Shown here in pieces: positions 1,353-47,110 of a DNA stretch of 64,000 nt (within the stretch, counting starts at the first letter, position 1; each line of letters begins with the position of its first letter). The stretch covers positions 1,220 through 65,219 of the forward strand of contig JAUCBJ010006143.1 in the NCBI GenBank assembly GCA_032718475.1. The letters run 5' to 3'. The notes beneath the pieces are model-generated. The model was not told the origin of the DNA. It saw only the letters and a program-made list of their open reading frames with translations, and made no database searches. The position numbers and the translations under genes were made by a program. This stretch comes from Nemertoderma westbladi. Lineage: Eukaryota > Animalia > Xenacoelomorpha.

Positions 1353-2907
1353 TAATGGAACCTATAGAATTATCTAGATTTGTCTAGATTATTGGCAGCA
1401 CTAATTCACTATGTAAAGGTGCGTTTGTGCGATTAGTTACACATTACATCAATATATTTCACATTATTTGTATTTATTTCGTAATTTGTTCATTATTTGT
1501 AATAAAGTTAGAATTATTGTTACATCTGTTTTAACATGATTCACCACGGTGAACCCAACTGAGGGACAGATGGCAGGCTAAGCAGCGGGCCGCAGCAGTG
1601 AACGGGAACATCGGCGGAATGTAGAAAGGAGTCCACCCACAATATAGATTAATAGTTCTTCGCCCATCGCCTGAAAGGTTAGACAGCGTTTGATGCCTTG
1701 CTACCTAAGTGTAAGACCTGAGATCAAAGGTAGACGTAGTGACACGCTGTGCGCCAAAATTTAAAATTAGTAACTGTACTGTTTTGATTCTGACAGAACC
1801 CGCGGTACCCCTTCACATTCTTACAGGAGGAGAGTAGAGAGTGAGAGAGAGAATAGATACAAGTACACAAATAGGACGCAGGCACACCAATACGGGGCAT
1901 GTACATTGGTAGGGTACACCAAAACTGTACGCCTAACTTATTTGCCGTGTATAGGTGCGCTTGTGGCTTGTTTTGTAGTACAACAGTGTCCATTGCTTGT
2001 ATTGGAGTCTGTAGGCCAAGATAAGGTTACTGTGTCTTGTCTGAATCAAGATTGTACCATTCAGGCGGTCGGGCAGTTTATTGTGCTAGGCGCATTACAA
2101 ATAGGGCTATTTGGGATACTAACACCTACCGTGTCCTCGCCGACATCCTGATAAGAAGTTGCCACGCCCACCTAGGCAACCAAAATTCTAGATAGGAGAC
2201 CAGGCTAGCTATCGTAACTGTACGCCTACTGTAGTAAACTAACACATTTCTTCTTCGTATCAGGGACCTGGTAGATTTAAATTGCCGAATTCCGGGCGTA
2301 GTTACCAACTTTATGCCTGAATTTGAGTCCTGGAAATACACAAAAGGGGAAGGAGCCTTATCATCTGTGAGTATTAGACCTACAGACCGCAAAATTAGAA
2401 TATTTGTAAAATGCACACCGGACCCAGTAAATTATATAATATGAAGGGATACAAAACTAAAATTCGATTATAAAATTCAACACACACACGCGTTTAGGAA
2501 TTATTTACACCTCGAAATATATAAAATAATTTGTCCACGCCGCAGTTCGTCCGCTAGTTAGATATTTAGCTAGCAACCCCCACCCCATATAAATCACACC
2601 GCGGCAAAGTATACGAACACCTTTAGTCCGTCAGCAAGTCAGCACGATTGTTAGGATTCGCTGCGCAGGATTTTGTATTATCGAAGTTTGTCCGTTTGTA
2701 GACTGTTTTCTGCCTCACCAGTTAACGAGGCCGATACTGCAATAGATTTGCTTACTTAGAGTTTACTGTTTTGGTGAGAAGGTTGGATTTATGTTTTGTG
2801 ATTCACAGACTTTACAGTAGGATATTGCAGGATTCACACATAGTAGAGATGTGATTTCGGAATCAATGAACAGTAGGAATATGTTTCTAGATCTGGTCGA
2901 TCAAACA
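1353..2907 (+). repeat. 5' LTR of the BEL element (~1.55 kb; lacks the first TG)
   Basis: Near-identical to the 3' copy from TAATGGAACCTATAG (1353 vs 17878) to GATCTGGTCGATCAAACA (2907 vs 43611). The 3' copy lacks about 2292-2477. Confidence 0.85.
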
Positions 2908-4714
2908 GTAGGAATGTGATTATTTTTAACATATTCCAGAATGTGTTATTTTTAACACAGAATGTGTTCTACTGAATTATAAGTTCAGTAGGACTAAAAT
3001 TATTTGAAAATTTTGTATTTTGAGGTAAAAATTTGTATTTGATTAGCTAAGTGCTAATTTTTGAATAAAATTCATATTTGAACCGTGTGTAAAATATTTT
3101 GGAATTAAATACCGGTGTTTAAAAGGGTTTAAATACCATATTGTACCGGTACAAAATTTTCGTAAAGTAAAACCAAACTCTTGTTTTTCAGCTCATTTCT
3201 AGACTGTAATGAGAGCAAGACCGTGTTTAGCAAGTTTGGGAGATTGATAACTCAACAATTTTTGTTGGGGAAAATCGCACTTCGTCCGCAACGCTGGAAA
3301 CAGAAAGGTTCACGTCCGGTTTGTATCTGGGAATCTGTTTTTCTGGAGAATTTTGGAGGTGGTAATTTCGAAAAGTTGCATTAGTCAGTTAGGCATTACC
3401 GTATTAGTTAAAATTATTGTGGGTTCCACTTTCTCAAGTATTTGCTTTCTGTACGATTTCTTCGTTTATTGCTGAATTAGTCCGTGTTATTTGTGTTTGA
3501 TTTACAATTTGATAACATATATCGTTATCCGATTTATTTGTTATAAAGTTGGCCGATAGGCTAATTTTATTATATACTTATACCGTGACATTTATTTGCT
3601 GTAAAATTGGCTGGTAGGCTAATTTTATCCATTTGCTATAAAATCGGCCGGTAGGCTAATTTTATATGTTTGAATTATAATTAGTACCGTTTTATATATA
3701 AATACTGTAAGTTTGATACTTGACACTCACATACAACTACCGAACTTAGCGACAAACAGGACTATACGAAAAATACACCTACCGACTATGACTCATGTGA
3801 CTCGGATAAGTCAGTAGCGGAAGAACCACAAGGGAAGACTCGCGAGCCTACCGAACCAACACCGTGTGCGTCACCAGTACATCCAACGGGAGTACCGGAT
3901 GCCTTAGTACGAGGCGACGGCAGGACCGGGGATTTTCTAACTGTTCCGCAGCCTAGATACAGGGAAACAGATATGCTTAGTTCAGTAGGAAGCCAAGAGA
4001 GCATTGTTAGAAGCGTCGGAGGATACATGGCGCATATTACCAGGAGTATTGGAGAAGGCCAACGCATATTAAACGAGTTGACCGCTCCGATGTCCCAGTT
4101 CGAGTTTTACACCTTACAGGTTAGAGTACAAAGGTACATAAGGTACATAAGGTACATTAGGTACATAAGTCCGTAAGTAACCTTATCAGTCTACAAGATC
4201 TAGCTAGACAAAGACAGGACGCGGACACTCAGTTTAAGATCCTTGAGAAATTAATGATCGCTAGGGAGAAACTAATTTAGTTTAAGACGGCCGTTAGACT
4301 GATACAACAGGAACAAGCGGACCAGTTGCTAGGTGAGTCAGTTTCCGACGAATTATTGCAGCTCGAGGAAGAACAAGAACTGTATAGACTGGATGGACAA
4401 CTGAAATATCTGACGGATCAGTTACATATGTGCGGCGAAGATGTTGGAGATTTGGAAACCGTGCCGGAGGCTACGAGGGAAGCTTCACCCGTACAGACAG
4501 AATGGCACCGGGAATACTGGATCAATCACTGGTAAGTATTCGCAACGAAATTGGCAAGGTGAGTATAATAACGTCAGAAATTTCTCGACAGCAGCAACAG
4601 TTTTACAGAAAATGACAAGAGATTGAGGAACAAACTCAATTGCTGACAGTACAAGCAGCTGTAGAGGAGGAGAAACTAAGGGTAGCAAATGTTGCGAGAA
4701 TCTCTCATCTACAA

Positions 4715-4935
4715 GAAGCAGCCGAATTAGAAGCAGCTGAGATGGAAAGGTTAGAGTTGGAAATAGCACAACAAACAGCGACAGCTGAGTTAGCGCAACG
4801 AACGACAGCAGCCGAATTGGAGTGACAAGCAGCAGAAGCTGAATTGGAGCGACAAGCGGCAGCAGCCGAATTGGAGTGGCAAGCAGCAGCAGCTGAGTTG
4901 AAGCGACAAGTGGCAGCAGCTGAGTTGGAAGAACA
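4715..4935 (+). repeat. 27-bp coding tandem repeat, (AAAAELERQ)n coiled coil in gag
   Basis: Successive GCAGCAGC(C/T)GA(A/G)TTGGAGCGACAA-like units. Confidence 0.85.
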
Positions 4936-5608
4936 AAGGTTAGTTTCAGAAGCAAGGGCTGAAATGAAAAAACGACAAATAAAGGCCCAATCAGCTATAC
5001 GACTAGTGGAGTTCGAGGCGCAACAACAACAAACGGAACAACGTGAAAAGGAAGTTAAGCTTCATTTCGAACTCGAAAGGAAGGCGAGAGAGTTAGCCAA
5101 CACCAAGGAGGATCTGGATCTTAAAGCCCGCAATCGATCGATCTCGAGATGGACACGATCTAGACAGGATAGAGGTAAGGCATCGCCAAATTCAGGAACG
5201 AATAAAGGAAGGAAGTGTGGGAGCACCTGAGCGAGGACGGGAATTGGTTAAGGAATTATGCCAACGATTTCCTCAAGTAACTCCTATGTTTGCACCAATT
5301 ACGTCTAAAAAACCTGTTTCGATTGCGGCTAGTAGCAATATATCTCCTATCCACGATGCGACGGAACACAGGTTTGTTATACCGGACAAGTTTATACCGC
5401 CGAGAGCAACGTCATTGCCTATCACGAAAGTCAAGGTAAGTAATCCGCCAATTACGGACCGTAGTAGTTATTAGCCGGACCTACATTACTGACGACTAAA
5501 CAGGTGAGTCAACCTTTGACACCCAAACCTGTCACACACTATGCCAACCCAACTGTGTTTAGACCTACGAGGCCTTTAGATTCAAACGCCATTCTGCGAC
5601 CACACATT

Positions 5609-5845
5609 CAGTTTACATCGCAATCTACGACTTCGAGGAAGACTTGTGAGCCTACCGAACAGCAGAGACCAGTAGACACGCGACCACTCAACCAGTTTAC
5701 ATAGCAATCTACGACTTTGAGGAAGACTTGTGAGCCTACCGAACAGCGGGGACCAGTAGACACGCAACCACTCAACCAGTTTACATCGCAATCTACAACT
5801 TTGAGGAAGACTTGCGAGCCTACTGAACAGCGGAGACCAGTAGAC
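5609..5845 (+). repeat. 84-bp tandem repeat (~3 copies) in gag, each carrying the GGAAGACT(C/T)G(C/T)GAGCCT motif
   Basis: The unit CAGTTTACATCGCAATCTACGACTTTGAGGAAGACTTGTGAGCCTACCGAACAGC...CCAGTAGAC repeats with period 84 (motifs at 5637, 5721, 5805). Confidence 0.92.
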
Positions 5846-7300
5846 GATGTTTCAAAACGAAGTGTTAGAATTCGGACAACACAACGGACGCAAGCACGTC
5901 GGCCACCGTATCCAGGTGATAGTAGCACTTCCAGCGAATCGGATTACCCGGAACGCGAGGTGTTTAGAACAGGAGCGGCCGATGAATGCAAATGTGAGCA
6001 TTCAACAAATTCCTTTATAAATGGTCCTCCACAAAATACACCAACACAGAAAGCGTTACAACCAACAGACACGATCAGTACTCAACAATTCGCCGATCTA
6101 ATGCGACCAGTTGTTAACAAGTTGGCCCAGATTGAGGAATGTTTGGAGGAAGCTCAAACCAATAGTTCGAGAGTAAGTATGGAATTCGAACACACCAGAC
6201 ACCCGAAGAATCCGCAAAGGACGGTACCCTCAGGAAATACTTCGTATCTTCGGAGAATATTAATAATAATATTAATACTTCGGAGAATATTAATTCGATT
6301 ACCACACAAGGACGCGAAACTTTGAATGTAGCTGAAGAGATAGCTAAATTCGCAGCCAGAAAAGGGCTACCAGAGCAGCAACCACCAAAGTTCTCCGGTA
6401 ATTCTCAACATTGGCACACATTTGTGGACTATATTGAATCTCAAATTGCAGCCTGCGCTTTTACATCGAGAGAGAAGTTTAATTATCTGCTTCAAAAACT
6501 GACGGGAGAACCAAAATGTCTAGCAGAGACCTTTGTTGGTGTACCAGACGCCTTTGAGTTGGCTTATGATCGCTTAACTTTGATTTACAGTGGCACAGTA
6601 AGCATGGCCAAGTCGGTAATGGAAGAACTCTGTAAAGGGGGAGCCATTACAAAACCTGTGGACTTACTGAAGTTAGCCGACGAAATCAAGAACGCCATTT
6701 CTTCTTTACGATCAATCGGACAACTAGATTACGCAAACACTCCTACAGTCCTATTGAAAATAATTAGAAGATTACACCATCGACTTCGTAGGGAGTGGAG
6801 AAAGATCGAATACCAGCGAGAAGAGACTGGTGGGTTTTTAAAGTTAGAAGACGTTTACCTATTAATATCCAGGGAAGCAGTGGTCGAAACTCGGTCAAAC
6901 TATACCGACCAACATATAGTAGCCGAGGGGATAACATTGCCATCTTCTAACCAACAGAAACCACAGACGACATCCACAAGGACGGTCACTTACGCCACAC
7001 TGACAGACACTCAACAATTTTCCGACGGTTATAAAGTGTCCGCACCAATATCGGATCAAACAGAGCAGACAGCAACTAACTGCCGACTTCAGCGGTTGTC
7101 AATACTGCGAAAGAATAGGTAAGCGGCATACTAGTCATAAATTGAGAGGATGTAGACTATTTTGTGAGTTAAACTCTGAAGAACGACGGCTACAAATACG
7201 GCCATTAGATTCTTGATGGAGGTGTACACAACATGGACATGTCCGTAAAGATTGTCCAAATATACACACCTGTCCTTCTTGTGGACGCAACCATGACGCT

Positions 7301-10300
7301 TTGCTCCACACAGATAGTCATACACCGACGAAACGCTTCACCAGGGAACACCCAGAAGCAGCCGCAAAATGTAATGCTGCATACAAAACACGAGAATCAA
7401 AATCAACACCAACATTTGTGACACATATTTGGGATTGTTTTCCAGAACAATCCGGGTCTTCGGATAAAGAGTCGGAAGACAACCACGCATATACTGGAGA
7501 CGAACAACCATCGATTGCACTTCTGACGCCTGATCAACTGAAAGGATTCAGTGTAATTCCTGTTAAGATTACAGGCACCAAGGGAAGCAAACGTATTTAC
7601 GCCATTCTAGACTCAGCCTCATCTCACAGCTACGTGGATGAGAAGGTAGCTGATGTGGTAACGGACTTTCGACAAGGTAAGAATGTCAGATATACTGTAA
7701 GTAGTATGCATGGACAACATGCGATTCCAGTGACAAGAGTTAAGTTGAACTTAGACACCCTTCTCTCAAAATCGCAACATAGCGAAAAGGAGAGGTCTTT
7801 GCTTTCTTTTAGGGATTTAACCTTTGCGGCCACAAAGGACTTTAGTAACCTACTGGGTCCAGTGCCAGAACAATCCTTGGAGGACCGTAAGCATTTTAGA
7901 CACCTTGGTGTACCAGAATGTCCTGTTAATTACAGATCAGTAGCGATGTTGATCGGGACAGACCAATTCAACTTGTATCAAGTGTGGGAAACCAGACCAT
8001 TGGTAGTAGTAGCAGGAAACGCTTATGCCTGTAGAACTCCGATAGGTTGGTATACTCGAGCGCCTGTGCGCACACTAGATATAAGTGACGAGGAAGATGA
8101 TGTACAAAGTACATGTAGTTTATTAACTACAACTTTGTCTCATTCTTTTTCAAATGGAAGAGACTATACTACGCGACAGTCAATGAGACACGACAATGTT
8201 ACAGGTACGACTTGCGTTACGAATACACTAAGTCATGAAGAGCAAAAACAAATCCACAAGGTTAGTTTGGAAATTGGAAAAGAGACGCGTCAGGCAGAGT
8301 TTCCATCAACGACAGATGATAACACCAGAAGGCTTGCGAGTCTACCTGATCCAATAATGTTACAAACACCCGTTGATGTCGACGCACTAAGAAATTATTG
8401 AGTGGAACAAGCTGATTTGGACAAAGAATTAACAGAGAAGACTATCAGATGGTTGGAACAAGATACCGCCGAACCTGGTAGTTACGAACCATGTATGTCG
8501 GAACAAGAAAAACAATCTTTAAAGATCATGGAGGATACTATCCGCCAGACGAAAGATGGACATTATGATGGATGATGGAAGATGGATGTTATGGTGTAAC
8601 CAACGACCGAAACTTATAAATAACTATCCACTAGCCTTAAAGCGTTTAAACTCAATACGCCAACGTTTATTAAAGGACGAGAAAGCCCATTTACATTATA
8701 ATACTCAAATGGAGACGTATTTGACAAAAGGGTACGCTATCAGAATGACAAACCCGGAGATTGTGACAGATCAGACATACTACTTGCCACATCACTATGT
8801 GACAACCCAGAAAAGGTACGTGTAGTTAATGACTGCGCGGCTCTTTTTGAGGAAATGTCTCTCAATAGTGAGTTGATGGATGGACCAAACATGAATAATT
8901 ATCTCATAATGAATAATTATGCGCTTTCGCCAACGTCAAGTAGCATTTACTTGCGACGTGGAAGCAATGTTTCACCAGGTGCGAGCGTTAGAGCGAGACA
9001 GAGACAGTTTGAGGTTCCTCTGGTACCCGGATGGAGATTTAAGTCAACCACCGTCAATTTACCAAATGCAAGTTCGCGTATTCGGTGCCAGAGATAGCCC
9101 AAATTGTACCATGTACGCCCTAAAACAAACCGCTAGGGATCAGAAACACAAATATGACCCAGAGATAATTCAAATTGTAGAAAGAGACTTTTATGTTGAT
9201 GATGGATTACAGAGTTGTGACACAGTAGAACGTGCTATAACAGTAGCATATCAATTACGGGACTGTCTAGCAGCTGGAGGTTTTAACCTAACCAAGTTCG
9301 CTTCAAACAGCACCGATTTGGTGAATTTGTTCGAAACGACTGAGCGTGGGGGTGGTGACATAGATCTAGAATTTGAACCATTACCGACGACCAAGGTGTT
9401 GGGATTATTTTGGGACCCCAACACAGACAACTTTAAAGTAAAACTGACATTGGATGATCAAGGAGGTTCTCTGACCAAGAGATCCTGCGTATCAAAGTTG
9501 AGTCGATTGTTTGATTCATTAGGTTTTATCAGCCCAATAATACTGCAAGCCAGAATATATATGCGCAGTATATGGAATGATGGGACGAACCAATCTCATC
9601 TGAACAAGTACACTTATGGAAAACTTGGGAGGCGCAATTGTCTTCACTAGAAGATTATTCCATACCCCGGGTATATTTTCCATTACAATCGACATTTCCT
9701 GACAATTTAGAATTACATTGTTTCTCTGACGCCAGTGACAACGGCTTTGGAGTGACAGCGTATCTGCGTAGACAAGTAGATTCAGACGAGTTTGATGTAT
9801 CGCTCATTACTTCTAAGGCTAAAACCATGCCTACTAAGTATATGACGACACCACACGCTGAGCTACAAGCAGCAACCTTGTCAACTACCATTGTAAACCT
9901 TATCCAGACTGAACTATAATCAAGTTTACAGATATTTTATTGGACTGACGCGACGTTAGTTTTGTTTTATATAAACAACAACACACTTGAATTTAAGACA
10001 TTTTTAGCTAACCCTCTTGCGGAAATTTTAGACTGTTCAATAAAGGAAGATTGGCGACATTGTCCCGGACCACAAAATCCAGCTGATATTGCGTCACGAG
10101 GAATGATGCCCGAGGAGTTCTGTAAACCGGCGAACAAGAAATTTTGCCAACATGGACCACAATTCTTGCAAAGATCATCACAACATTGGCCGCCATTATA
10201 CGTTAATAAGTCTAACACTATCCCTAAGGATGCTGAAATTAAAAAACCAAAGAAAGGGAAAGCAAAGAAAAGGACGACGGCAAAACTTAAGAAGAAACCA

Positions 10301-12430
10301 AAGGCAAAAAGGAAAAATATAACTTATAAAGTTAAAAATGGAAGACTTGCGAGCCTTTCTTCACCAGACGTATCGCCAGACGGTCAACCAGACACGTTAC
10401 TAGACGGTCAACCAGACACGTTACTAGACGGTCAACCTGACACGTTACCAGATGATCAACCAGACATGTTACCAAATGATCAACCAGACATTTCGCCAGA
10501 TATGTGACCAGACATTCATAACACATTGATACATAGTAAAACCGCAGTTTCTTTTTTGGAGCGGCCTTCTATTGACAAACTACCAAATTTGACACTCTTG
10601 AGTAACCATAAGTACAGTGAAACCTCATGTATTACAGATGTGGGTAGTACCTATACAAATGTAAATACAGGTGTTACTTTGCGCTCAAGAGACATACCAA
10701 CCTTACAACCTACGGTGGGACCTGGGATAAATATCGGCAGAAAAATAAATTTACCAAAACCCAGTGATCCTATAGAATTTAAACTACCATTAAGGATCGA
10801 CTTACAAAGTATCGACAATCAAGGTAAGAAGACGAAGAAGGACAAAATACTTATAGACCCGGACGGATCAACAGTCAATAAGGGAATACCTACCGGCGGA
10901 CCCGTGGGCCCATCTAATAAAACGAGACCTTCTAGACTAATCACTGACTTACCTGATGACGTCATAAATACTTATGTCGACCGTATTGTAAACCTAACAG
11001 ATTCTTGGACAAAAGCGAATTAGCGTGGATTGTACGTTTTGTACAATACGTTAAGGGCAAACGCGACTTTACACGTTGACTTACATTGACCGAGATTGAC
11101 AGATGTGAAATTAAATTAATTTGCCATTACCAATTACGATATTTTGCACGCGAATTCACATCTATAAGTCAAGGTCAACCAATCAAGTCATTACCAATAT
11201 TGAGTTGGAGTCCAATAATTTATAATGGCTTAATTTGTCATAAATCTCGGCTTCAAAACATTGACTTTAATACTGAGTTTAGATACCCAATAATAATACC
11301 ACAACATCACGAATTACAATGTGCAATGATACTGGACGCACATTTACAACTAAAACACGCTGGAAGACACCACTATCTTTCACATCTACGTACAAGATTT
11401 GTATTAATTAGACCCAGTAAAGCATAAGTTCAGTGACGCGTATATGTATTATTTGTAAAAAGGTACATTCTAGATTAAGTACCCAAGAAATGAGTGAACT
11501 TCCACAAGCACGACTACAAGCATTCAGACCATTTTTTACAGAGACTGGAATTGACTGCTTTGGTCCCATAAATACAAAACGTGGACGTATACTAGTAAAA
11601 CATTGGGGACTGATATATATATGTCCAGTAGGGCAGTTCATATTGAATGTGTGATGGATCTTTCCACTAACGCTTTTATACTAGCATTATGGCAATTTAT
11701 CGCTAGATGCGGACTAGTAGAATGCTTGTACTCAGACCAAGTTACAAACTTTGTTGGTGCTCAAAATGAAATTGCAAGGGCCTTTAAGAAATTAGATCAT
11801 GACCAGATCTCCAATGAACTACGTCCTTACAAGATTGTTTGGAGATTTAACCCTCCAGATATTCCATGGAGAGGCGGAGTCTGGGAGAGACTGGTAAGAT
11901 CCATTAAAACAGCCATGGCAAAAGTCATTCCAGTACATCACATATTGACAGACGTCCAATTGACCACATTGTTTGTTGAAATCGAGGCAATACTAAATAC
12001 TAGACCCATAGTATTAGTACCCGATGACAAACAATCCCAGTTTGCTTTAACACCAGCACACCTGCTAATGCAAGCACCGACTACATTGATGCCTATTTCG
12101 GTTTCAATGGAAAGCGATAGCTATGGTAGAAAGGCGTGGAAAATCACGCAACTACTAGCTAAGAAATTCTGGGAAATATGGCAAAACCATTATTTGCCCT
12201 CTATTTCTGCCAGAACCACTTGGTACAATAACACCCGAGCTTTTAAACCGGGCGATCACGTACTGTTAGCAGAAGTGAATTTAAAAAGACGCCTCTGGTT
12301 AACTGGTGTTATTTTAGATACACACCCATCTATGGACGGAGTGACATGAACTGTGACGGTACGGACAATTGACGGTCATACTGTAGACAGACCGACTCAA
12401 CGTCCTTTACTTCTTGAAGAGACTCGGAAT
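7301..12430 (+). pseudogene. pol: BEL pol: aspartic protease, reverse transcriptase, RNase H, integrase (fragmented)
   Basis: PR: AILDSASSHSYV. RT: YYLPHH, CDVEAMFHQV, FYVDDGL. RH: ELHCFSDASDNGFG, WRHCPGPQNPADIASRG. IN: H..H/CIICKK zinc motif, TGIDCFGP, YSDQVTNF, GGVWERLVRSIK; C-terminal FWEIWQNHYL. Confidence 0.95.
10363..10515 (+). repeat. 24-bp coding tandem repeat, (PDTLLDGQ)n, in the RH-IN linker
   Basis: About six CCAGACACGTTACTAGACGGTCAA-like units. Confidence 0.9.
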
Positions 12431-13131
12431 AAGTCTGGAGATTATAAGTCTCCAACTAATCTTAGTAAATAATATGTGTTTACCAAATAGATTTCCACGT
12501 ACCTGTACACTGTAGTAAATACAGCGGTAGAATTCCATTGTCTTTATATGTGAACATTAAAGGGTAGTCCTTATGTGTCACATAGGAGCGGGATTTGTAG
12601 GTATAAGAAATGGATTTCTACTTGGAACTCACAATATGAGACATTTTCGAAATTTTAGACAATCCATTTGGATTTGAAAAATTTTAAAAATTGATTCTCC
12701 AGTGAATGGATTTCAGGGTACAGTCGGGTGGGACTTGAAATTAGAGAAACAAGAGAACGGAAGACTCGCGAGCCTTTCTTAAAATTAATTAAATTTTACA
12801 CGGTCTTGTTTCAATAAGTTACGTCAACCAATAGACTTCCCTATATTACTAATTCTTGATTGCTTATTTTCTGATAATAGTTTGGGATCAAAAGGTGAGT
12901 ATTTTAAACTCACAGCCAGTTTAGCCCAAATCGTTTTTATTTCGGCAACAAATTTTAAATAAGAAACAGTGTGTCATTAAAGAAACCTTAGATCTTAGGC
13001 TATGGGTATGAGGTTAGAGCGTTGTCAAGCCAAAAGGGCAGACGAAAAACTCCCAAATCTCCTCACAACTAACATAAAACTCTGTTGTATTCCCTCTAGT
13101 AGTAATCATTATGTAACAAATACGTCTAATA

Positions 13132-16100
13132 ATGGCAAAGGGGATATCTGGAGAGCCGAGATGGGGATATGATATCCAAGAGGAAGCAGCAGCTCCATTC
13201 GAACGATTTGGAGCAACAGACTACACTATATTTGGAATAAAAGATTTATCGGAGAGTACAGCAAAACTTGCTAAAACTAAATATGACTCAACGGTATTAA
13301 AGAGGAGGCAGAACGCTTTAAACGAGAGAATTGAAAGTTTGCGTCAAACCTTCAACGAACTTTATCCGTACGATGCTTTATGCGATACGGGAGATATTAG
13401 TGAAGACCCAGATACAGAAATAAGTAGTTTGTATCATACCATGCAATACCTGAAGGCGCATGAACCTATGCCTGCGGTACGTCATGAATTCAATGGAATG
13501 CATCTTTACAGACCAACTCGAGGAGACAATAGAGAAACGAAGGAAGCCTTTTCAGTTTATAAACTTTATTATCAATGTGGTGCTTGTATGCGCGAACAAC
13601 AAAAGGCGATTCTGATGCGTTTGAATAAGGAAAATCCCGAGCCGATATTGGCGAGGTGTTCGAACCATCAACAACTACGTTACCAGGAAGGAGGGTATCC
13701 TTTATCTAATCCGTATCACTCATTCGCTATGTGTGGACCAAAGGCGGAAGAAATTGTCGTTTGTCCACCTAAGATTGTTGAACCCGATGAATTTGAACTT
13801 ACGCTGGAAGAGGTGACTCAGTCAACCCGTGAAAGGAAAGAAGCTCTTAGCCTATACAGAGCATATAAGGCTTTTGAGAAAGGTGAGATGGAAGAATGAG
13901 GCGGAAGACTTGCGAGCCTACCTTACCATTGGACATCACACGATCAGACTTCAGCTAAGGAGATGACGCTGGAAATTTTCGAAAGTATAAACTTTGCCCA
14001 AAATGTCATTCAGAGACTACAGATTGCATCCCCGGAAAGGACAAGAGAAATGCAACTGCATAGTGCTCCGACTACGAAACCATTGAGTAAGACACTCAAT
14101 TTCCCTATTAGTATACCAGTTCGGAAAGATTAGACTTATGAAATACTTATTGTGGATCATCCGAGAATTATGTCAAACTTAGAGTTCCTTTCTGCTGTTG
14201 TTCTGAGCGATATGGTTAAGATATATGATTTACATAGACACATTACGCAAAAGGTCGTGCATAACGTTCCGCTACATATTCAAGACTTTAGAGAACTGGA
14301 TAGAGCTGGCACCGATATAGCTCCGAGTAACTTGAAAGGATATCTAACCAGAACAATTCGCTTATGGATCGGGACAGGAACCTTTCAATCGGATACAGAC
14401 ATCGCCACGAATTGGCAAGGTAAAGTTATTCGTTTCGAGGACGAGAAAGACATGGAGAAGATTTGGCAACCTTCGGAAGAATTAATGGACGAATGGAACA
14501 GGACGCTTAGATCATTTCAAGAAAATGGTTCTATGTTTTATGATAATGAGGGCGGCAGCCATCAACAAAGTCTAACTTCTAAGACTATACAAATTAGAGC
14601 GGCAGACTGAGTCTTGCACGTTTTTAGTAGACAAAGGAGCGACAAGCGAATGCCGATACCTCAGGGAACTACTAAGCGGCACTATCTCATTACCAATATC
14701 ATAAGGAAGATGGACCAGGCCTGCAACATCGATGCTAGAATGTTACCGAAGATGGTAAGAAACATTATTTTAGTCAAAACTGTTGTAAAGATTGGATCAG
14801 GAGTGCGAGAGGATTTAATTAGCGACTTTGCCGGCATGTCGGATAGTGACGACAGATTACCGACACCTTACATCGATACTCGACCTCTTATATTATGGTC
14901 CATAGAACAAGGATTTTTCCGGGAGTATGATACGCAAAAGACCGGAATGGGATACATTTCCTACCTGATGTTTAATTGGGATTACAAGGAAAGTAAAAGA
15001 ACTAAGTATATTGAAACATATGGAGAAGGTGATACTCCAGATATGAATGAGTTTGAATCACAGCTAAAATGGAGAGGATGCGTGTATTGGGCTATTATGT
15101 CACTTCCAAGAGCAGTACTACAATATTATTTAGCGATAGAGTCATCAGTAAATGTTTGCTTAATCACCGACATTGTGTCTTGGGGACTCTTAAAAGACAT
15201 CCACTTTGTCTCGGAGAAGGACATACGTTCTACGAGGAAGGGAGAATTCATACTGACGTGTTTAGACGATTTCTCGAACCCTTCTACAATTCCGATGCTC
15301 AGTGCAATGCCTTTACTCGAGCAGGATTTAGTATATTTTGATACATGTATCTTCGCTGTGAGGGATCGCTTATCGAAAGACCATCTATGTTTACAATTTT
15401 ACCTTATGAAGGAGAACGTATTGTAGAGGTTACTGACGAATCACGGCAGACGCGCGCACCTATCGGTCACTTCGGTGATGATTCTGAAGCAACAACGATT
15501 GGTGATCCTCTGGAGGAACTTCTTGAGATTGAAAGAAACCTTCCGAAGAAATCCCAGACGGAGATTCTTCAACTTGAAGCAACAGATGCTGTAGTTTGTA
15601 TACAACCTTCTGAAACATACCAACCTGTAGATCCAGACAATTATGACTATAGTGTGGGAGGAAGCGCTCGACCAATTGGTGACCTTATATATGAGCGAGT
15701 ATGGTACCCTGCTAATACGATGTGTGGTAAATGTGGCGTCGCTGGACATCATTCGACAAAATGCAGCAGAAAACATATTACTACGACTCAACTGATTTGT
15801 GGATGGTGTGGAGACCAGGGATCCCATACGTTTTATACTTGCTGGAGATTTATGGCACAATGTTCATACTGCAATATAAAGGGACATTGAGCATCTGAAT
15901 GTCAGTTGAGAGACATACCATATGAACACAAGTCGGTGACACTCGTAAGAAAACTGTTTGATAATTGGGAAGATTTAGCTGACAAACATGTATCGGCACA
16001 AAGATAACAATTCCCGATGAGAGTACACCTCGGATTTTGGGCGGTAAATCCTCAAACTATGATGTCGGAAGGATATATATGCTACAATCCGCTATGCCAC

Positions 16101-16861
16101 AATATGATGAATTGATAGAGGTAGTTGACATTTTGCCTCACGATAGTGGATTCAGGGTCGTGCGAGAATATTTATTGCAGATTCATCCAGACAATAAGAA
16201 CATTTGGAATTTCCAGAAAGTCGTTAATCGTATCACGTATGGTGAATTCGACCGTTTTCGAACTGAAAAGCGAAACAAGGGAGCTTGGTTAACATTCGCA
16301 TGAGCGTACCGAGCCGCCTTCTACCATAAACGTGTACGGTCGAGCGTATTTGAGGAAGAGGAGATCCTAGAGGCGACCGACATACCAGCCACTCCGGTTG
16401 CGCTGTCTGCACGTCACCCTCGGGAGGACGAACAGAACAGGATCATAAGGGTTCAGAAAGTGAGCCAACAATTAAAGAAAACTCTTAACATTGAAGAACG
16501 AAAGGGATTTGAGCCGGCTATTCGAGTTACTCGAGATACGGTGTCGCTTCCCAGAGAGCCGCGAGGAGGATTGGGACATATACCAGCCAATCAAAAGGGG
16601 GCGCAAGCTTCTCTTGGGTCTGCGCCGTCCGCTTCCAGCGCGTTCCCAGACGTTTTGCCATCGGTAGAACCAACCAATCGGTCACGAGGAGTCGGACGAG
16701 GATTTGGGTTTACTAAAAGGCGAGCTTGTGAGGAAATGGTCGCACCATCTCCCAACGTCCAAGGTAAACTAGTGACTCGCCCCATAAGTCCTGTAGTACG
16801 AGCAAAGTCGCCTATACGCAGTTTTCAAGGACGCGGCCGAGCCCAATCTACAAAGAGATGA
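13132..16861 (+). pseudogene. Extra ~1,240-codon ORF of the BEL element in the env position; unknown protein with three CCHC zinc knuckles
   Basis: ORFs 13132, 14152 and 14614 share a frame, then 15345 and 16037/16460 follow after frameshifts. Knuckles: CGKCGVAGHHSTKC, CGWCGDQGSHTFYTC, CSYCNIKGH*ASEC. No signal peptide or TM segment seen. Homologous to 50456-54700. Confidence 0.8.
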
Positions 16862-16864
16862 AAT

Positions 16865-17460
16865 GGAAGGCAAAGGGTGGACGGAAGACTCGCGAGCCTT
16901 TCTTATGATTTCATTTATTAGCATTATATAAAGATGCATATTTTAGTTAGGTATGAAAGATTTATATTTAGAAAGTTATGCAATTTATATTTGAAAGATT
17001 TATATTTAGAAAGTTATGCAATTTATATTTGAAAGATTTATATTTAGAAAGATTTATATTTGTAATTATTCCGAACTTATGCAATTTATATTTAGGTACA
17101 AAGTGAAATTGTTTATATTTAGGTACGATAATATTTGTATTTGTAATTATTTGAATTTATGCAATATTTGAGAGGCAAAGGGTGGACGGAAGACTCGCGA
17201 GCCTTTCTTAAGATTTCATTTATTTGTATTTGTAATTATTTGAATATTATGCAATTTATATTTTATATAAGGAAGCAGTATTTGTAATTATTTTGACATT
17301 ATTGGTAATTTATGCAATATTTGAGATGCAATAGATTTATATTTGGTGAATTTAATTTAGATTTATATTTGGAAATTGTATCTACTTAATTAAAGCCTTA
17401 AATATGTATGCTTCAGGTATTTCATAATTTGATTTGTAATTATTGGTGAAAACCATATAT
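16865..17460 (+). repeat. AT-rich repetitive 3' UTR of the BEL element with a duplicated ~50-bp block
   Basis: Many TTTATATTT and TTATGCAAT units. AGGCAAAGGGTGGACGGAAGACTCGCGAGCCTTTCTTA occurs at ~16868 and ~17173. Confidence 0.8.
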
Positions 17461-17645
17461 TTTATACATGATAATATCCTGTTTTCATGGAGCGGTATAG
17501 AATTATATCCTCACAAAAGCCGTAAAATTTCCAAATTTTATTTTGTTGGAATTAATTTGTATTATTTGATAGGTTCATATGTTATAAGATTACATTAAGT
17601 TCTCATTTGCATTTGGTATAGCTATTTGTACAACATTATTCAAGT

Positions 17646-17729
17646 GGTTCAGTAGCTCAGTTGGTTATGCGTTAGAAATTCGTTTGATAGGTATCGAGTT
17701 CAAATCCTAGCAGGTGTAAATTGTTTTTT
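17646..17729 (+). ncRNA. tRNA-like / Pol III unit (A box, B box, oligo-T), not a canonical tRNA
   Basis: A box TAGCTCAGTTGG at 17653, B box GAGTTCAAATCC at 17696, TTTTTT at 17724-17729. Acceptor and anticodon stems do not pair. Confidence 0.55.
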
Positions 17730-17875
17730 GTGCCAATTTTCAACTTATTTGAATTGACCGCTACGATTGAATTGTATCTGCTCAAGGTAGATTAACCAAT
17801 GAAATTGCAGTTATTTGACAGTAACCAATGTTGTGCAAGTTATGCGTTTGCTGGACCAATGGTTATATTTAAAAA

Positions 17876-18561
17876 TGTAATGGAACCTATAGAATTATCT
17901 AGATTTGTCTAGATTATTGGCAGCACTAATTCACTATATAAAGGTGCGTTTGTGCGATTAGTTACACATTACATCAATGTATTTCACATTATTTGTATTT
18001 TATTTCGTGATTTGTTCATTATTTGTAATAAAGTTCGAATTATTGTTACATCTGTTTTAACATGATTCACCACGGTGAACCCAACTGAGGGACAGGTGGC
18101 AGGCTAAGCAGCGGGCTGCAGCAGTGAATGGGAACATCGGCGGAATGTAGAAAGCCACCCACAATATCGATTAATAGTTTTTCGCCCATCGCCTGAAAGG
18201 TTAGACAGCGTTTGATGCCTTGCTACCTAAGTGTAAGACCTGAGATCAAAGGTAGACGTAGTGACACGCTGTGCGCCAAAATTTAAAATTAGGAACTGTA
18301 CTGTTTTGATTCTGACAGAACCCGCGGTACCCCTTCACATTCCTACGGGAGGAGAGTAGAGAGAGAGAGAGAGAATAGATACAAGTACACAGATAGGACA
18401 CAGGCACACCATTACGGGGCATGTACATTGGTAGGGTACACCAAAACTGTACGCCTAACTTATTTGCCGTGTATAGGTGCGCTTGTGGCTTGTTTTGTAG
18501 TACAACGGTGTCCATTGCTTGTATTGGAGTCTGTAGGCCAAGAGAAGGTTACCGTGTCGTG
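17876..18561 (+). repeat. 3' LTR of the BEL element, left part (interrupted by the Polinton)
   Basis: Begins TGTAATGGAACC, matches 1353-2040, and stops at the Polinton TSD. Confidence 0.88.
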
Positions 18562-24960: not shown

Positions 24961-25993
24961 AAATATAAGTTGTAAGCAGATCATTTATGGACTTAATTTA
25001 AAAGAATTAAAAAATCAATTAACTGGTAAAATTGTACTCAAACCTAATCAGTTTATATATAAGGTATTTGGTGCAACCATATTAATGTTTACACGAAGTG
25101 GGGACTTCGCGCAGCACGAAGTTGGCAGAGCCTTAGCGAATTGACACTGTTAGGGGGTAGGTCAATTTATGCAAATAGTCACGTTGGCCCTCTAGCGGCA
25201 GACTGGAGAACTGCAGATGGATTTGCCTCCTTTGAAAGTCACAGCTAATGGTCTAATACATGTCTGCCAAGTTTCAGCTTAAACGGATTAAAAGCAAAGA
25301 AATGGGAGGGCATTTAATGTTTAGACATGTGGCCCTCTAGCGGGAGACCATTGCACTGATGGTGTCTGAAAGTCTCTCAAAAATCTCAACTTTTGCTCAT
25401 ATTGATACCTACAAATTTTCAACTTGGCAGCTTTAAATCCGACAAAGTTATTAGCATGTCAAAATCGTAACGACGACGACAACGACGACGACAACGACGA
25501 CGACGACGACAACGACGACGACAACTATTTGCATAAATTGACCCACCCCCTAACAGTGTCAATTCGCTAAGGCTCCGCCAACTTCGTGGCTCGCCCCACA
25601 AATGGTCGAATAACAATTCTCAGTAGAAAATATAATTTTAATAAAGTGAAAAAGCATATATTCGAAAAAACAAACATTAATTTGATTTTTAAATCAATCA
25701 ATTTGTGTACTTATATTTTTAGTATAGATACCGTAATTTATAGGTTACTTATAAACAATATCGGGTTTTATGTTATATTTGATAATGTTAAACTAGAAAT
25801 TTCATACGACCCTGAAATATTCAATAACTGTAAAATCAGAATAAAAAATAATGTTGTTGTTTGCTGTTTCTACACTGGTAAATGTACATTAATGTGTTAC
25901 CCGTTTAAATTTCATATATATTATCCTATATTCAACAAACTGGTTAATAATTTATTATTGTTTGGTGCGAGGGTTTTTTGTTGTAAAATATAA
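24908..25993 (+). pseudogene. TATA-binding-protein (TBP)-like gene split by a 507-bp insertion
   Basis: Removing 25093-25599 fuses ORFs 24908 and 25586 in frame (ATILMFT|NGRITIL), giving ~183-192 aa. Two TBP-like repeats: ILMFTNGRITI and ISYDPEIF...VCCFYTGKCTL (compare TBP ALIFSSGKMVC and SYEPELF...LLIFVSGKVVL). Confidence 0.72.
25093..25599 (-). mobile_element. Non-autonomous Helentron-associated (HINE/DINE-1-like) element
   Basis: ~75-bp subterminal inverted repeats, (GTC/GTT)n microsatellite, no clear TSD. Near-identical copy at 46362-46895. Confidence 0.7.
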
Positions 25994-35338: not shown

Positions 35339-36962
35339 TATTATTATTATTTAAGCTCTCTCTACTTGACTCCTTTGTACATACAGTATAATGTTAAATT
35401 ATAGACATCTGTGACCACGTTCATTGTCATCTTCTACAGTATATGCGAGGGATCAATATTTTACTGGCTTTATTTAAAGCGAATGAACTATAGATATATA
35501 GTATAGTAATAATATCATTCGAGTTAATATTGATTAATTACGGACATATGTGACCAAAATGAATTAATATACAGTATAAACCTAAGCTTATTGAATATGC
35601 TGTACCCACGACTGTTTCTTGGATCTGATGAATCGGACTAAATATTCTTTTTTCCCATTGCGCACACGTTCTTTAAGTTTGCCAATATTTTTGTCAATCG
35701 GAAGATAAATATTACTATTCGGGTGGACCTTTTGGAGTTCGTGAGAATAAAATGAGCCATTTATTATATCTCCGGCGCTGTCCTTAATATCGAACATTAC
35801 CGCTGGTACTCTATCCAATCTGACTCGATGAATAATAAATAATTCACGTGTCCATTGTTCTCGATAGCCTTTAGCAAAAGCAGTACGAGCGATAGATAAT
35901 CGTACTGTATCTCCAACTTTAAATTTTATTTTCTTGTGATTTATCTGTCTATATTTCCCATATAATCTATTCATTAATTCAGTTTCATTAAATTTATTAA
36001 CTTCAATGGGCGTCATTTGTATAGTCCTATGATAAGACCTATTATAAGCTGAGATAAGCTTAGGTAAAATTTTTATCCAAACATTATTTCCCCGTTGCGT
36101 AAAAATTTTGAACATCTTTGTTTTTAATGTTCTGTTGAATCTCTCGACAATAGCAGCCTTATTCACTAGGGGGGAGTGAAAAAAAATATTTTCTTTACTT
36201 TTAAGGGAAGCACTATTTTTCTGATGCCAAATCGGTCTAAACTAACTTTCCAAGAAATTTTTTTTGATTTTGAAAAATTCTAAGCGGGCCTCACGACACT
36301 TGAAAATTTCAAATTTTTGGGAATGGCAATGCCAGATTTGAAAATCCCAGATATTTTGTATTTTTGATAAAAGTTAAGGAAGATGCAAATATTTAATGTC
36401 AAATAGGTTGGAAACAAACACAAAATGTGAAATTGTGATTTTCATATAAATCTACCCCAGCCTCATGGCGTTTAAAATTTTGCAAAATTTGCCAAATATT
36501 TCACCCCAAAAATGCAGCAATCCTACTTCGTAGTCTCTATAGTTGAAATTGATTTACTGTGATTTGGAGTTCTACTTCCTGAGTGAAAACGAAGTCCCCT
36601 GATTTGATCACAACTATATTTCAATACTAGAAACCCAGCTAGCTGGCTGTGAATTTGCCATTGGATCAATTCCCAATAAGTATATTATAAACAACAGTAG
36701 GCCTAGGTCTAGGAAGAAGGATAATTCTAAATTAGGAAAACACTAGTAAAACAGTGAAACACTAGAAAAACATATGAAAAACACTGTAAAGCACACGGAA
36801 AACAGTAAAAATATTGATCAACAGGAAATTTATTACATGTATTACACTGCATTGGTAATCTTAAATGTACTCCTCGCATAGCACACATTAAGTAATCTCC
36901 GTAAAACATAGGGAAAACACTATAAACAAAAACGGTGAAATTTTTCCTATATTTCGCTAGAC

Positions 36963-37185
36963 GGCGGGGTAGCTCAATTGGCTGAGCGCCAGGCCTGCAA
37001 TCTATTGGTTGTAGGTTTAGCCCCACCAGGGTCCACTCAGCCGCCTTTCATCCACTGGGGTCGATAAATTGAGTACCAGTTAAATAACTGGGAGCAAATC
37101 TGGGGATAATAGTATAGCGCCCACCCCTACCCTCGGTAGCATCTATCGAAAGAGGAGCCTTCGGGTCGCCTCAACTGTTTGTTTG
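36963..37185 (+). mobile_element. tRNA-derived SINE with conserved central domain (MetaSINE-like)
   Basis: Head GGCGGGGTAGCTCAATTGG...CTGCAAT; core GGTCCACTCAGCC...TTTCATCC...GGGGTCGATAAATTGAGTACCAG resembles, from memory, the Meta domain; tail GAGCCTTCGGGTCGCC and (TGTT)n. Confidence 0.7.
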
Positions 37186-37628
37186 ATATGCTGCTAATAA
37201 TACTAGGTGAAATAAGAAATCAATCAGCATGCAGTTCAGCACTATCCTTGTTTTACTGGTCATCCAGTATTACCAGTGTTGCTGTATTCTGGTATTACAT
37301 AGTCTATTCCAGTATTGTTAGTGTTAGATCAATTCATCTGCTAAATGTTGGCAGTTGAGTGCAGAAGTTGCGGAATTTATTATTAAGGATACCATTAATA
37401 CCAGAAAACCGAACTGACTAGAAAATCATGTGTGGGGTTCTAGATCTTTCATCCGCGCTTCTAACCACTCTGGTATGCCACTTCACTACAGTATCTCTGT
37501 AGGCAGGACCTAATTGTGGCCCTCTTGCTGTCTTAATATTAAATACCGCAACATCTGCACTTTAACTGTTTAACATTTAGCAGATGACAAGATCCAACAC
37601 TAACAATACTTGAATACTGGAATACACT

Positions 37629-38129
37629 GGAAAAATCCTGGAAAAAAATGGATACCATCTGGAAATCAGATCACTCCAGGCACCTGAAGACCAAGTTCTT
37701 TCGAGCCACAGTGGAAAGTGTATTTTTATATGGGGGTGAGACCTGGACACTGACTAAATCACTTGAACAACGAATTGATGGTTGCTACACATGACTACTA
37801 AGGGCAGTCCTAAACATCAGCTGGAGACAACACATGACAAACGCCGAGCTTTATGGTACAATACCACCTGTATCAACCACCCTCCGTGAACGCAGATTAA
37901 GATTCAGTGGGCACTGCTGGCGAAGTAAAGACGAGGTCATACCAGATCTACTTCTCTGGCAACCAACTCATGGAAAGCGTAGTCGTGGACGACCTGCCAT
38001 AACATATATAGATCAACTTGAAAGGGATACTGAACTTGGGAGAAACAAAATTGCGACAACTATGGAGAATCGGGAAGCCTGGAAGGATCTCATTTCCACT
38101 GTCCGAGTTTGCTCGACCTAGTAGTAGTA
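37629..38129 (+). mobile_element. 5'-truncated RTE-clade LINE
   Basis: IWKS...KFFRATVESVFLYGGETWTLTK...RERRLRFSGHCWR...RSRGRPAITYIDQL; (TAG)n tail; 10-bp TSD GGAATACACT (37619-28, 38130-39). Confidence 0.9.
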
Positions 38130-39795
38130 GGAATACACTACCAGAACCCACCATTCAGGATGCTGCCGAAATGCATGCTGATTGGGGTTACTGTTCCTTG
38201 GTTGCCTGGCAACAATGGTTTCTGTGTAGTATTAGACACTTTCAACTTATTTTTTAGCAGCATATGAGGTAAAATTTAATGCTATCACTGCTGTCACTGT
38301 TTTCTGGACAGTTTATAGTGTTTCCCTATGTTTTATGAAGATTACTTAATGGTGTGCTATGCGAGGAGTACATTTAAGATTACCAATTCAGTTTAATACA
38401 TGTATTAAATTTCCTGTTGATCAATATTTTTACTTTTTCCGGGTGCATTACAGTTTTTTTCATATAATGTTTTTCTAGTGTTTTACTGTTTTACTAGTGT
38501 TTTTCGAATTTATAATTATCCTTCATTTTCCTATACCTACGTTTTATAAATATTGAGAATTTGATCCAGAGGCAAATTCACAGCCAGCTAGCTGGGTTTC
38601 TAGTATTGAAATATAGTTGTGATCAAATCAGGGGACTTGGTATTCACTCAGGAAGAACTCTAAACCACAGTAAATCGATTTCAACTATACAGACTACGAA
38701 GTAGGTTTGCTGTATTTTTAGGGCTAAATTTGGCAAATTTTGCAAAATTTTAAAGGCCATGAGGGTGGGGTAGATTTATATGAAAATCACAATTTCACAT
38801 TTTGTGTTTTTTTTCGAACCTATTTGACATTAAATATTTGCATCTTCCATAACTTTTATCAAAAATGCAAGATATCTGGGATTTCCAAAACTGGCATTGC
38901 CTTCCCAAAAATTTGAAATTTTCAAGTGTCATGAGGCCCGCTTAGAATTTTTCGAAATCAAAATTTTTTTTTTGCAAAGTTAGTTTAGACCGATTTGGCA
39001 TCAGAAAAATAGTGCTTCCCTTAAAAATAAAGAAAAAAAAATTTTTCACTCCACCCTATTATTCACAGAGTACATTACGTAATACTGTATACCGACGGTA
39101 TCTAAATATTTTCTTACAGATTTATTTAGAAACTCAGAACCTTGATCCGTGGCGATTCTGTTTAGTTTACCCTTTTGGAATATTTTTTGCAATATACTAA
39201 TAATTTCAATACCTGTTTTTGTTTTCATACCATAGGCAAAAGCAAGCTGGCTGAAGGCATCAATACATGTTAATATATAGTTATAATTATTATTTTGTGA
39301 TTTATATTGCTGCATATCCACCAGATCTATCATATATATATCTTTTAAGCCTCCCGTAAATATTTTAGATGTTGGATAATTATGTCTACGTGGTGTGTGA
39401 AGGGAGTATGTCTTTTGCCCGCTCAACCATTTCTGGGCTTGAACTGGTTTGATGTTTGTGGCTTTTGCTAATTTTGCGATACTTGCAAAACCCGCAGGGG
39501 ATGAAGGATCTAAATAAATTCTTAACAGTTTTTTGTCTAAGCTTCGGCTTAAAATCGGTTTCATCTTGCGTGGCATCTTTTCGACAACCGCAAGTAATAT
39601 GTATATTCAAATCTCTTATAAAGGGCATCACCGTAAGAACAACTGAAATTTTCTAATTTTCTTTAAAGTTGATGTTTTGAAGGGTTTTTGAAGTAGTATT
39701 TACTCTAGGTATATCTTGAGGTTTTAAATCAGTAGCTAACGGTTTACTCGATACTAAATATAATTTTCTAAATGTTACTCTTGTTTTAACCATTA

Positions 39796-42449: not shown

Positions 42450-42897
42450 GGAATTTCATGTATCATACTGAGTGGTTGGTTGGTTTGTTGGTTTGGTGAC
42501 AGCCGTTGAGGAGTAGCAGCGCTAGCTAGCGGAGGGTAAATCGTTGAGTTGGTAATCGATATAATATAATATATAATATTGAGGGAGGGTATATGCACGA
42601 TGCGTGTAGATGGCCACGTCGTCGTTGTTGTCATCATATACAGTATACAGCGGTGGTGGTGTTGGCAGTGGTGGTGATGTGGCGAAAAGGTGAATAACAT
42701 TAGGGTTAGTAGTTAGTTAGTCAGTAGTCGAGTTAGGCTACGCTACGATTGGTTGATGGCAACTGCCGATGGTGACATATGGCGCACGCATTGCAATTTA
42801 GCACCGGAATTTGACATTTTTAATACCCCTCTCAATGGAATGTGCATAGCCCAGGCTTAGGGAGGACTATCGTGAGGACTATGCTTTATCTACTACT
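42450..42897 (-). repeat. Polinton right terminal inverted repeat
   Basis: Reverse complement of 18562-19030. Confidence 0.92.
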
Positions 42898-42903
42898 GTC
42901 GTG

Positions 42904-46600: not shown

Positions 46601-47110
46601 GCCCTCTAGCGGGAGACCATTGCACTGATGGTGTCTGAAAGTCTCTCAAAAATCTCAACTTTTGCTCATATTGATACCTACAAATTTTCAACTTGGCAGC
46701 TTTAAATCCGACAAAGTTATTAGCATGTCAAAATCGTAACGACGACGACGAAGACGACGACGACGACAACGACGACGACGACGACAACGACGACGACAAC
46801 AACGACGACGACGACGACAACTATTTGCATAAATTGACCCACCCCCTAACAGTGTCAATTCGCTAAGGCTCCGCCAACTTCGTGGCTCGCCCCACAACCT
46901 CCGTTTAGTAAAATTACACCGGATAAAGAGTTATTAAATATATTACTTTTAGTAAAAAATAACAATGTACCTAAACTGAATCATTATGTTTGCATAACTA
47001 ACTTGAATCGATTGCTGAATATGAAAGTTCTTCATATCCACAATAGGAAATATTGTGAAAGGTGTTTGACTCATTGTTATCGAAAGGAAGTTCTTCATCG
47101 ACACCGTCTC
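43612..47110 (+). mobile_element. Fragment of a second, diverged copy of the same Polinton family (PC4-like gene and pPolB N-terminus)
   Basis: Colinear with ~19332-22290; ORFs 44000, 44362, 44738 and 45454 match ORFs 19735, 19975, 21003 and 21458. No TIR present. Confidence 0.93.
46362..46895 (-). mobile_element. HINE/DINE-1-like element, second copy
   Basis: Near-identical to 25093-25599 with a longer microsatellite. Excision restores TTAAGAC|AACCTCC as at 22057-22070. Confidence 0.72.

Follow-up and report, generated by a model that had tools for sequence, protein, structure and literature searches.

The closest described counterparts of the sequence reported here come from plant DNA transposons. 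The VANC motifs of VANDAL transposons are 8-9 nt long and lie in tandem arrays in non-coding DNA, according to the parts of the accounts available (PMC5735166, PMC10398659), and for the TnpA motifs of Spm/CACTA elements (CCVTCGCAAA) dense terminal clusters are described as required in the accessible text (bioRxiv 10.64898/2026.08.24.746577). Here we describe a 20-bp motif dispersed through the interior of an oversized BEL/Pao long terminal repeat (LTR) retrotransposon of Nemertoderma westbladi (Xenacoelomorpha). The element lies in assembly GCA_032718475.1, contig JAUCBJ010006143.1, positions 1,220-65,219 of the forward strand; this whole stretch of 64,000 nt is called the window.

Like the VANC motifs, the BEL motif is a short motif, within the window specific to one family, at several internal places of an element with an extra gene, its effect is proposed to spread, and some of its copies have been multiplied by local repeats, as far as the available text on VANC allows the comparison (PMC5735166, PMC10398659). 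It differs in being 20 bp long, dyad-symmetric and mostly single, in lying in coding sequence at 5/7 loci, and in belonging to an animal LTR retrotransposon, where it is known from sequence alone; in place of non-coding tandem arrays, the element has one tandem array and one duplication only. The TnpA motif, as presented in the accessible text, is likewise family-specific, contains CpG and is read by an element-encoded accessory factor, whereas the BEL sites are single, spread through the interior and absent from the LTRs. The BEL motif would work like the VANC or TnpA motifs, but its layout is not theirs and we do not class it as a member of either group.

Among LTR elements, non-env accessory genes of invertebrates include CERV of the Caenorhabditis elegans Gypsy/Ty3 element Cer1 (PMC10309623) and the captured third open reading frames (ORFs) of bdelloid elements (PMC5408684), both as described in the portions available. 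The BEL element resembles Cer1, as well as elements with a Rev and Rev response element (RRE) system, in having an accessory gene placed after pol and ahead of the 3' LTR. However, the available account of CERV mentions no repeated cis-element (PMC10309623), and the RRE consists of a single structured region, in place of 20 nt repeated seven times. A precedent at the RNA level is given by PAL1 and PAL2 of Ty1, self-complementary stretches of 6-7 nt that differ from each other and lie at the 5' end; one is in gag and was dispensable in vitro, in the accessible part of the study (PMC6844567). The ability to form intermolecular duplexes is predicted for the BEL motif too, but no copy lies in an LTR or the 5' untranslated region, unlike the 5'-leader location of the Ty1 palindromes. 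In the searched literature, whose coverage excluded subscription papers and supplements, no paper contained the literal motif, and neither a dispersed internal motif or comparable case in animal LTR elements, nor anything on BEL/Pao elements with an additional ORF or on internal binding sites of LTR elements linked to silencing escape, was found. The word 'motif' is absent from the available text of a BEL/Pao study (PMC3118150).

The motif recurs at seven independent loci

A pattern scan of the window located GGAAGACTYGYGAGCCT exactly at nine sites (3833, 5637, 5721, 5805, 10340, 12759, 13903, 16883 and 17188) and a tenth copy, with three mismatches, at 8327; the mean number of matches with ≤3 mismatches in 100 shuffles was 0.18. 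All ten copies are on the + strand, and five minus-strand matches are the same sites read in reverse. This bears out every coordinate given by the first-pass annotation, a model's reading of the same DNA. Since the copies at 5637, 5721 and 5805 are units of an 84-bp tandem repeat and those at 16883 and 17188 belong to a 58-bp local duplication, the independent loci number seven, as the annotation had also counted; the flanks are unrelated among loci. It had described a near-palindrome of 17 nt: the near-palindrome stands, whereas the unit is 20 nt. Also correct were the reading frames, KTREP or KTCEP in gag, RLASL in pol and in an extra ORF downstream, with non-coding copies at 12759 and 16883/17188. 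Identical letters are thus read in two different frames and also recur outside coding sequence, in agreement with the proposed conservation at the nucleotide level, and with 8327 set aside 6/7 loci share 17/17 letters apart from CpG decay.

As the annotation had stated, the motif is confined to the BEL element within the window: a profile of the seven loci found no copy in either LTR or in the other ~46 kb of the window, and none in a 24-kb Polinton-like insertion. The best score beyond the ten sites and their reverse strands was 16.8 bits at 15445, the next being 8.6; the former was reached by 10/1000 Markov simulations, and 15445 is a possible, degenerate eighth site. A search for recurrent words (≥9 letters at ≥4 distant places, or 12-14 letters at three) returned essentially the motif only in the interior, and AT-rich or simple words only in the Polinton-like insertion and the remaining window. 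Trivial words aside, no other repeat is dispersed through the element interior. Scans elsewhere gave single matches at two viral-contig and 23 metagenome-contig loci, 25/25 without BEL similarity, which we read as chance. A search of Rfam gave no match up to E 5, and GRLASL, KTREP and EDSRA were found in 0/68 BEL homologs, the closest of which are too distant for positional comparison.

The 20 bp form a dyad without spacer, with the half-site GRWAGRCTCG (left GGAAGACTCG; right GAAAGGCTCG or GGTAGGCTCG). Within the half-sites AGRCTCG is invariant apart from CpG decay and the outer letters are looser, and the symmetry continues through the central CGCG, the letters of which cannot pair in a hairpin. 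The 14-bp core at 8327 has three mismatches to the forward core and a single one to its reverse complement, that one being CpG decay; 8327 is an inverted core within forward outer arms, and for a reader of double strands it would be the same site. In quasi-palindromes, template switching produces such inversions in one step. The annotation had noted at 8327 the change of an A.C mismatch into G.U; the change is present, but it is equally an exact inversion of the 14-bp core and is therefore no proof of RNA pairing. Inspection against consensus patterns led us to reject a p53 site, a tRNA primer-binding site, a DNA transposon footprint, a polypurine tract and a heat-shock element, which needs no fixed spacer letters.

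The inner gaps between loci measure 1144-2980 bp, as expected from the claimed spacing of 1-3 kb, and are more even than random (coefficient of variation 0.26, p 0.0035 against uniform placement, a null that ignores the exclusion of sites by conserved domains). With the end gaps included, p was 0.016-0.071 depending on the boundaries and the choice of duplicate, and 0.007 with an earlier boundary. The six gag-pol copies (four loci) lie where 0/68 homologs align, and half of gag-pol is covered by ≥5 homologs; for four of four loci to fall outside the alignments, p was 0.06. Two of the four places are large lineage-specific inserts. The spacing from protease to reverse transcriptase (RT) is 528 codons, compared with 386-423 in 19 homologs (40 examined), with the insert at 8100-8450, and that from RNase H to integrase is ~414 codons by hand count, compared with 116-228 in 56/68 homologs, with the insert at 10200-11000. 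The latter insert also includes a stretch rich in lysine and a repeat of 24 bp.

The host element is an oversized BEL/Pao retrotransposon

Coordinates of the element and of the motif loci are collected in Table 1. Judged by sequence content, the element belongs to BEL/Pao (Belpaoviridae): gag-pol matches DUF1759 (5e-11), Peptidase_A17 (8e-25) and DUF5641 (9e-15) in Pfam, a BEL-type gag is followed by protease, RT, RNase H and integrase in this order, the tblastn alignments are colinear, and the 68 homologs are all BEL/Pao by Pfam content, none above about 38% identity over long alignments. Numerous stops and frameshifts mark the window copy as dead, and its LTRs are 96% identical. The context of GGAGCGG is common with a sister element, at 49770 (internal) and at 54751 (then TGTA), which would place the start of the 3' LTR near 17496; from this start an LTR of at least 1.9 kb and an element of about 18 kb would follow. 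By eye no tRNA primer-binding site was recognised in 2900-3700, a region in which the LTR end is undefined.

Table 1. Features of the BEL/Pao element and its motif loci, in window positions
Feature	Position	Strand	Description
5' LTR	1353..2907	+	Extent matching the 3' LTR; first ~380 bp apparently missing, 3' end undefined; start inferred from a PPT-like (polypurine tract-like) site
gag-pol	3724..12420	+	BEL/Pao, many stops and frameshifts, long lineage-specific inserts
Motif locus 1	3833..3852	+	Start of gag, KTREP frame, ACC-type right arm; no BEL homolog aligned
Motif locus 2	5637..5824	+	Copies 5637, 5721 and 5805, 84-bp tandem repeat, gag KTCEP, CpGs decayed
Motif locus 3	8327..8346	+	Protease-RT linker; reverse-complement core
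Motif locus 4	10340..10359	+	TTC-type, GRLASL, lineage-specific RNase H-integrase insert
GGAGCGG	12585..12591	+	Presumed polypurine tract sequence repeated internally, immediately 3' of pol; putative role
Motif locus 5	12759..12778	+	TTC-type, non-coding, gap between pol and extra ORF
Extra ORF region	13132..16861	+	Broken; orphan protein, N-terminal Cys cluster and three CCHC knuckles
Motif locus 6	13903..13922	+	ACC-type, extra ORF, between two conserved blocks; read letter by letter in family contigs
Candidate eighth site	15445..15464	+	Degenerate; one symmetric position altered in both half-sites; would occupy the widest gap
Motif locus 7	16883..17207	+	Copies 16883 and 17188 in a 58-bp duplication, 3' untranslated region
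GGAGCGG	17489..17495	+	Presumed polypurine tract upstream of the 3' LTR; putative role
3' LTR	17496..18561, then 42897-43611	+	Split by a 24.3-kb insertion; start inferred

The profile of the International Committee on Taxonomy of Viruses gives Belpaoviridae a size of 4.2-10 kb with LTRs of 0.2-1.2 kb, and terms BEL/Pao replication poorly understood (PMC8742986). The element shares with this family the gag and pol domains and their order, the LTRs and the position of a third gene, as far as the available text of the sources goes (PMC8742986; PMC3118150); it differs in its length, its LTR size and its third ORF, which has CCHC knuckles where the family has an env-like gene. On these sequence features we regard it as an oversized member that exceeds the described range, and see in this no ground for exclusion.

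In contigs of four sequencing runs, which stem from at most three samples, every one of the 30 bins is covered, by thousands of pieces that are mostly <95% identical, so the family is multi-copy and diverse, and the extra ORF is a normal part of it. One of the seven loci, 13903, was read letter by letter in these contigs. Motif position 9 was C in 8418/8418, 33649/34081 and 290/290 depth units of three runs; the T of the window copy is therefore decay, in accordance with the annotation's ancestral CGCG core, and at 13903 a selected G.U-compatible T was ruled out.

The extra ORF is an orphan with a diverged relative in the window

The extra ORF was searched as a read-through translation with X at stops. 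Its main part had no homolog among 1.84 billion representatives or by a word-based search, its knuckle part had none among longer proteins, and Pfam gave a sub-threshold zinc-finger match only. A homolog was found within the window itself, at 50671-54678, with three blocks of 23-26% identity that take in the Cys cluster of the N-terminus, the middle part and all three CCHC knuckles. It belongs to the 3' fragment of a sister LTR family (49770-54760), in which a broken ORF of ~1336 codons lies between two GGAGCGG sites with no gag-pol adjoining. A single-sequence fold of the middle part of this homolog was unusable (predicted local distance difference test score 31). The best word in the sister ORF, ATGGAGAT, occurs five times in two frames at 52439-53864; this was reached in 10/300 simulations, a marginal result uncorrected for six word lengths and limited to the 3' fragment. 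Motif discovery in another family with the extra ORF, as the annotation had proposed, thus revealed no comparable dispersed motif in this fragment. The sister ORF also contains an 18-bp perfect palindrome at 51971.

The motif as a proposed DNA or RNA signal

We consider it likely, and with high confidence among the explanations considered, that the motif is a selected, distributed cis-signal, the kind of entity that the annotation had also thought likeliest. The annotation's hairpin can be drawn, but it is barely stable: the 20-mer folded as RNA is predicted to have 0 to -3.3 kcal/mol, and with 40-nt flanks the drawn hairpin has a predicted probability >0.5 at 2/10 sites, so that no structured RNA element of the Rev/RRE or CERV type is predicted. 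As single-stranded DNA the hairpin has a predicted 0 to -0.9 kcal/mol. By these models, reading the motif as an RNA hairpin is weakened.

Our tentative preference, which we hold to be somewhat short of probable, is that a dimeric sequence-specific protein would bind the motif as double-stranded DNA and so keep the long interior open and transcribable, by analogy with VANC. It is favoured because the symmetry includes letters that a hairpin cannot pair, the core is inverted at 8327, the letters are fixed and the hairpin is weak. The even inner spacing and the letters retained at 13903 count in its favour as well. On this model, template switching in the course of reverse transcription would have carried patches of 20-25 nt to new places and given the sites their common orientation; the patches would have survived only where proteins tolerate them, and would have been kept since each bound site acts over about a kilobase. 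The weakest parts of this scheme are its reader, for which the extra ORF of the element and a host factor are the candidates, and its output, which may be resistance to silencing or help in elongation. A bolder proposal, which we find quite doubtful, is that this animal LTR lineage has its own licensing system, with a 20-bp operator every ~2 kb and the orphan zinc-binding accessory protein as reader, the first distributed VANC-like or Rev-like pair in BEL/Pao, and that this allowed growth to 18 kb.

This output is proposed for a methylating host. Transitions between the LTRs fell within CpG-context columns in 6/13 cases, such columns being 55/675; this excess indicates CpG methylation of the element, and its silencing by methylation is plausible. 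The interior nevertheless keeps an observed/expected CpG ratio of 0.8-1.2, which we count for the double-stranded DNA reading. The excess of C-to-T over G-to-A among the decayed motif CpGs (5:0) was not significant (p 0.06).

Several results weigh against the double-stranded DNA site, or narrow what can be drawn from the evidence for it. Decay had reached the motif CpGs at 5/14 independent sites (8/20 overall) and those of the LTRs at 6/56 (p 0.012), a pace in the motif no slower than in the LTRs, contrary to the idea that the motif is protected from methylation. In this copy we read the result as motif CpGs without sign of protection, rather than as targeting, because decay in general may have gone further in the interior than in the LTRs. 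The CpG ratio was 0.10 higher near motifs, and 29/500 rotations did as well, which is not significant. One indirect result therefore opposes the proposed output, by which the 18-kb interior would be kept transcribable in a methylating host. The sister 3' fragment has no motif copy or half-site, and no 16-20 nt repeat family was found in 5.6 kb of it (49.7-55.3 kb), a search in which the BEL element, as positive control, gave four copies; the motif is thus not a fixed companion of this type of extra ORF, and the suggestion that the extra ORF reads it is weakened. As would be expected of an RNA signal, the seven loci are all in sense orientation, and CCHC knuckles, of which the extra ORF has three, bind single strands. 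Part of the even spacing may be forced by the positions of linkers.

The family contigs bear on persistence of the site with limits of their own. Position 9 is the only motif difference (≥2%) at 13903 among the five listed in 114 bases, but differences near contig ends are unlisted, and one contig has nine of which five are shown. In the lineage with nine differences 244/1887 letters differ overall, and a clean motif would arise by chance with a probability of 0.07. Two contigs of a more diverged lineage, from different samples, align over 13876-13922, ending on the last motif base; 8/47 letters differ there compared with 18/50 in the flanks (Fisher p 0.04), where the aligner keeps the best stretch and the positions of the eight differences are not displayed. 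At two other loci, diverged contigs omit the upstream sequence and take up alignment again at 8330 (one contig, one run) and at 16872 (three of four runs). Taken together, the alignments are suggestive of a diverged lineage that keeps the 13903 site.

Action in the genomic RNA is the main rival, though less likely than not: the sites would hold the two packaged copies in register over 18 kb by repeated self-complementary contacts, or Gag or the CCHC protein would bind them as small stem-loops, stabilised by protein, in export or packaging. Besides the sense orientation and the knuckles, three features speak for it. Intermolecular self-duplexes of the intact sites are predicted at -20.5 to -23.7 kcal/mol, which ranks them among the top 0.07-0.7% of 20-mers in the interior; pairing through G.U is preserved in the variants of the outer arms and in the change at 8327; and the candidate site at 15445 alters both partners of one pair. 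Yet four unrelated interior 20-mers form stronger self-duplexes, the hairpin is mostly unformed in context, and pairing alone would permit each locus to drift independently, whereas the loci share fixed letters; at 13903 the T of position 9, being decay, is not a tolerated G.U variant, and Rfam has no match and the functional Ty1 palindromes sit in the 5' leader. The sites might instead act on unintegrated cDNA or in reverse transcription, as strand-transfer anchors, as pauses or terminators of plus-strand segments or in loading of the pre-integration complex, and so let an oversized genome be fully copied; we hold this improbable. The element has about twice the 4.2-10 kb of Belpaoviridae (PMC8742986), and the interior has four + strand copies of the PPT-like GGAGCGG (5972, 10558, 12585, 17489), each 167-301 bp from a motif copy; these may be internal plus-strand primers or chance. 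However, they may precede or follow the motif, three loci are without any, the purine content upstream of motifs varies from 0.40 to 0.84, and the sister element has both PPT-like sites and no motif.

Neutral or nearly neutral copying is about as improbable. A recombinogenic quasi-palindrome would have been pasted by reverse transcriptase, would have survived in tolerant linkers, and would look alike through recent copying or conversion. Groups of copies that agree over a few extra flanking letters, to 24 nt at 3833 and 5637 and to 22 nt at 10340, 12759 and 16883, point in this direction, as do the gag-pol copies outside all homolog alignments and the two loci in ordinary local duplications. 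No other sequence of the element has spread likewise, however, there is one locus per gap instead of clusters, and the site seems to persist in a lineage in which about one third of the flanking letters have changed. Lastly, recruitment of a host repressor or a methylation-sensitive factor of the BANP/CGCG type, which would restrict the element to a permissive cell type as self-restraint, appears very improbable. The core CTCGCGAG has 8/10 letters of the BANP motif, TCTCGCGAGA, the fast decay of motif CpGs fits methylated sites, and a sister ORF without motifs fits a host reader; but the two outer letters beside the core differ from the BANP motif at every locus, 17-20 fixed letters exceed its length, and about 46 kb of other window sequence has no copy.

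Other elements in the window

The insertion that splits the 3' LTR is a Polinton/Maverick-like element of 24.3 kb (18562-42897) with ~470-bp terminal inverted repeats starting AGTAGTAG, a 6-bp target duplication (GTCGTG) and matches to PolB, an adenoviral-type protease and an integrase. A second, partial copy of its left part, 88% identical, occupies 43611-47110 and cuts off the 3' LTR. Elements are nested in the Polinton-like copies at 25091-25601, 46360-46897 and 36167-39058, with 65-bp and ~770-bp terminal inverted repeats. A tandem repeat of 162-164 bp with an internal palindrome (48205-49018), inside long inverted ends near 47680 and 49240, is possibly a non-autonomous DNA transposon. The window begins with the 3' end of an ORF (1-864) which, by eye, we take to resemble a Penelope-type RT with a GIY-YIG nuclease, and an ORF with a fibrinogen C-terminal domain at 56734-57414 (Pfam 1e-37) is probably a host gene exon or retrocopy.

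Implications for BEL/Pao elements

The motif is real, unusual and easy to test, and its function is putative. It bears on how large retrotransposons re-invade methylated animal genomes, and counter-silencing by an element's own sequence-specific protein is established for plant DNA transposons. The long, exact and evenly spaced site is a ready probe for its reader and for the distinction between DNA and RNA, either outcome of which would be new for BEL/Pao elements. The orphan third ORF, which occurs in two families of this genome that are distant from each other, represents a new family of accessory proteins.

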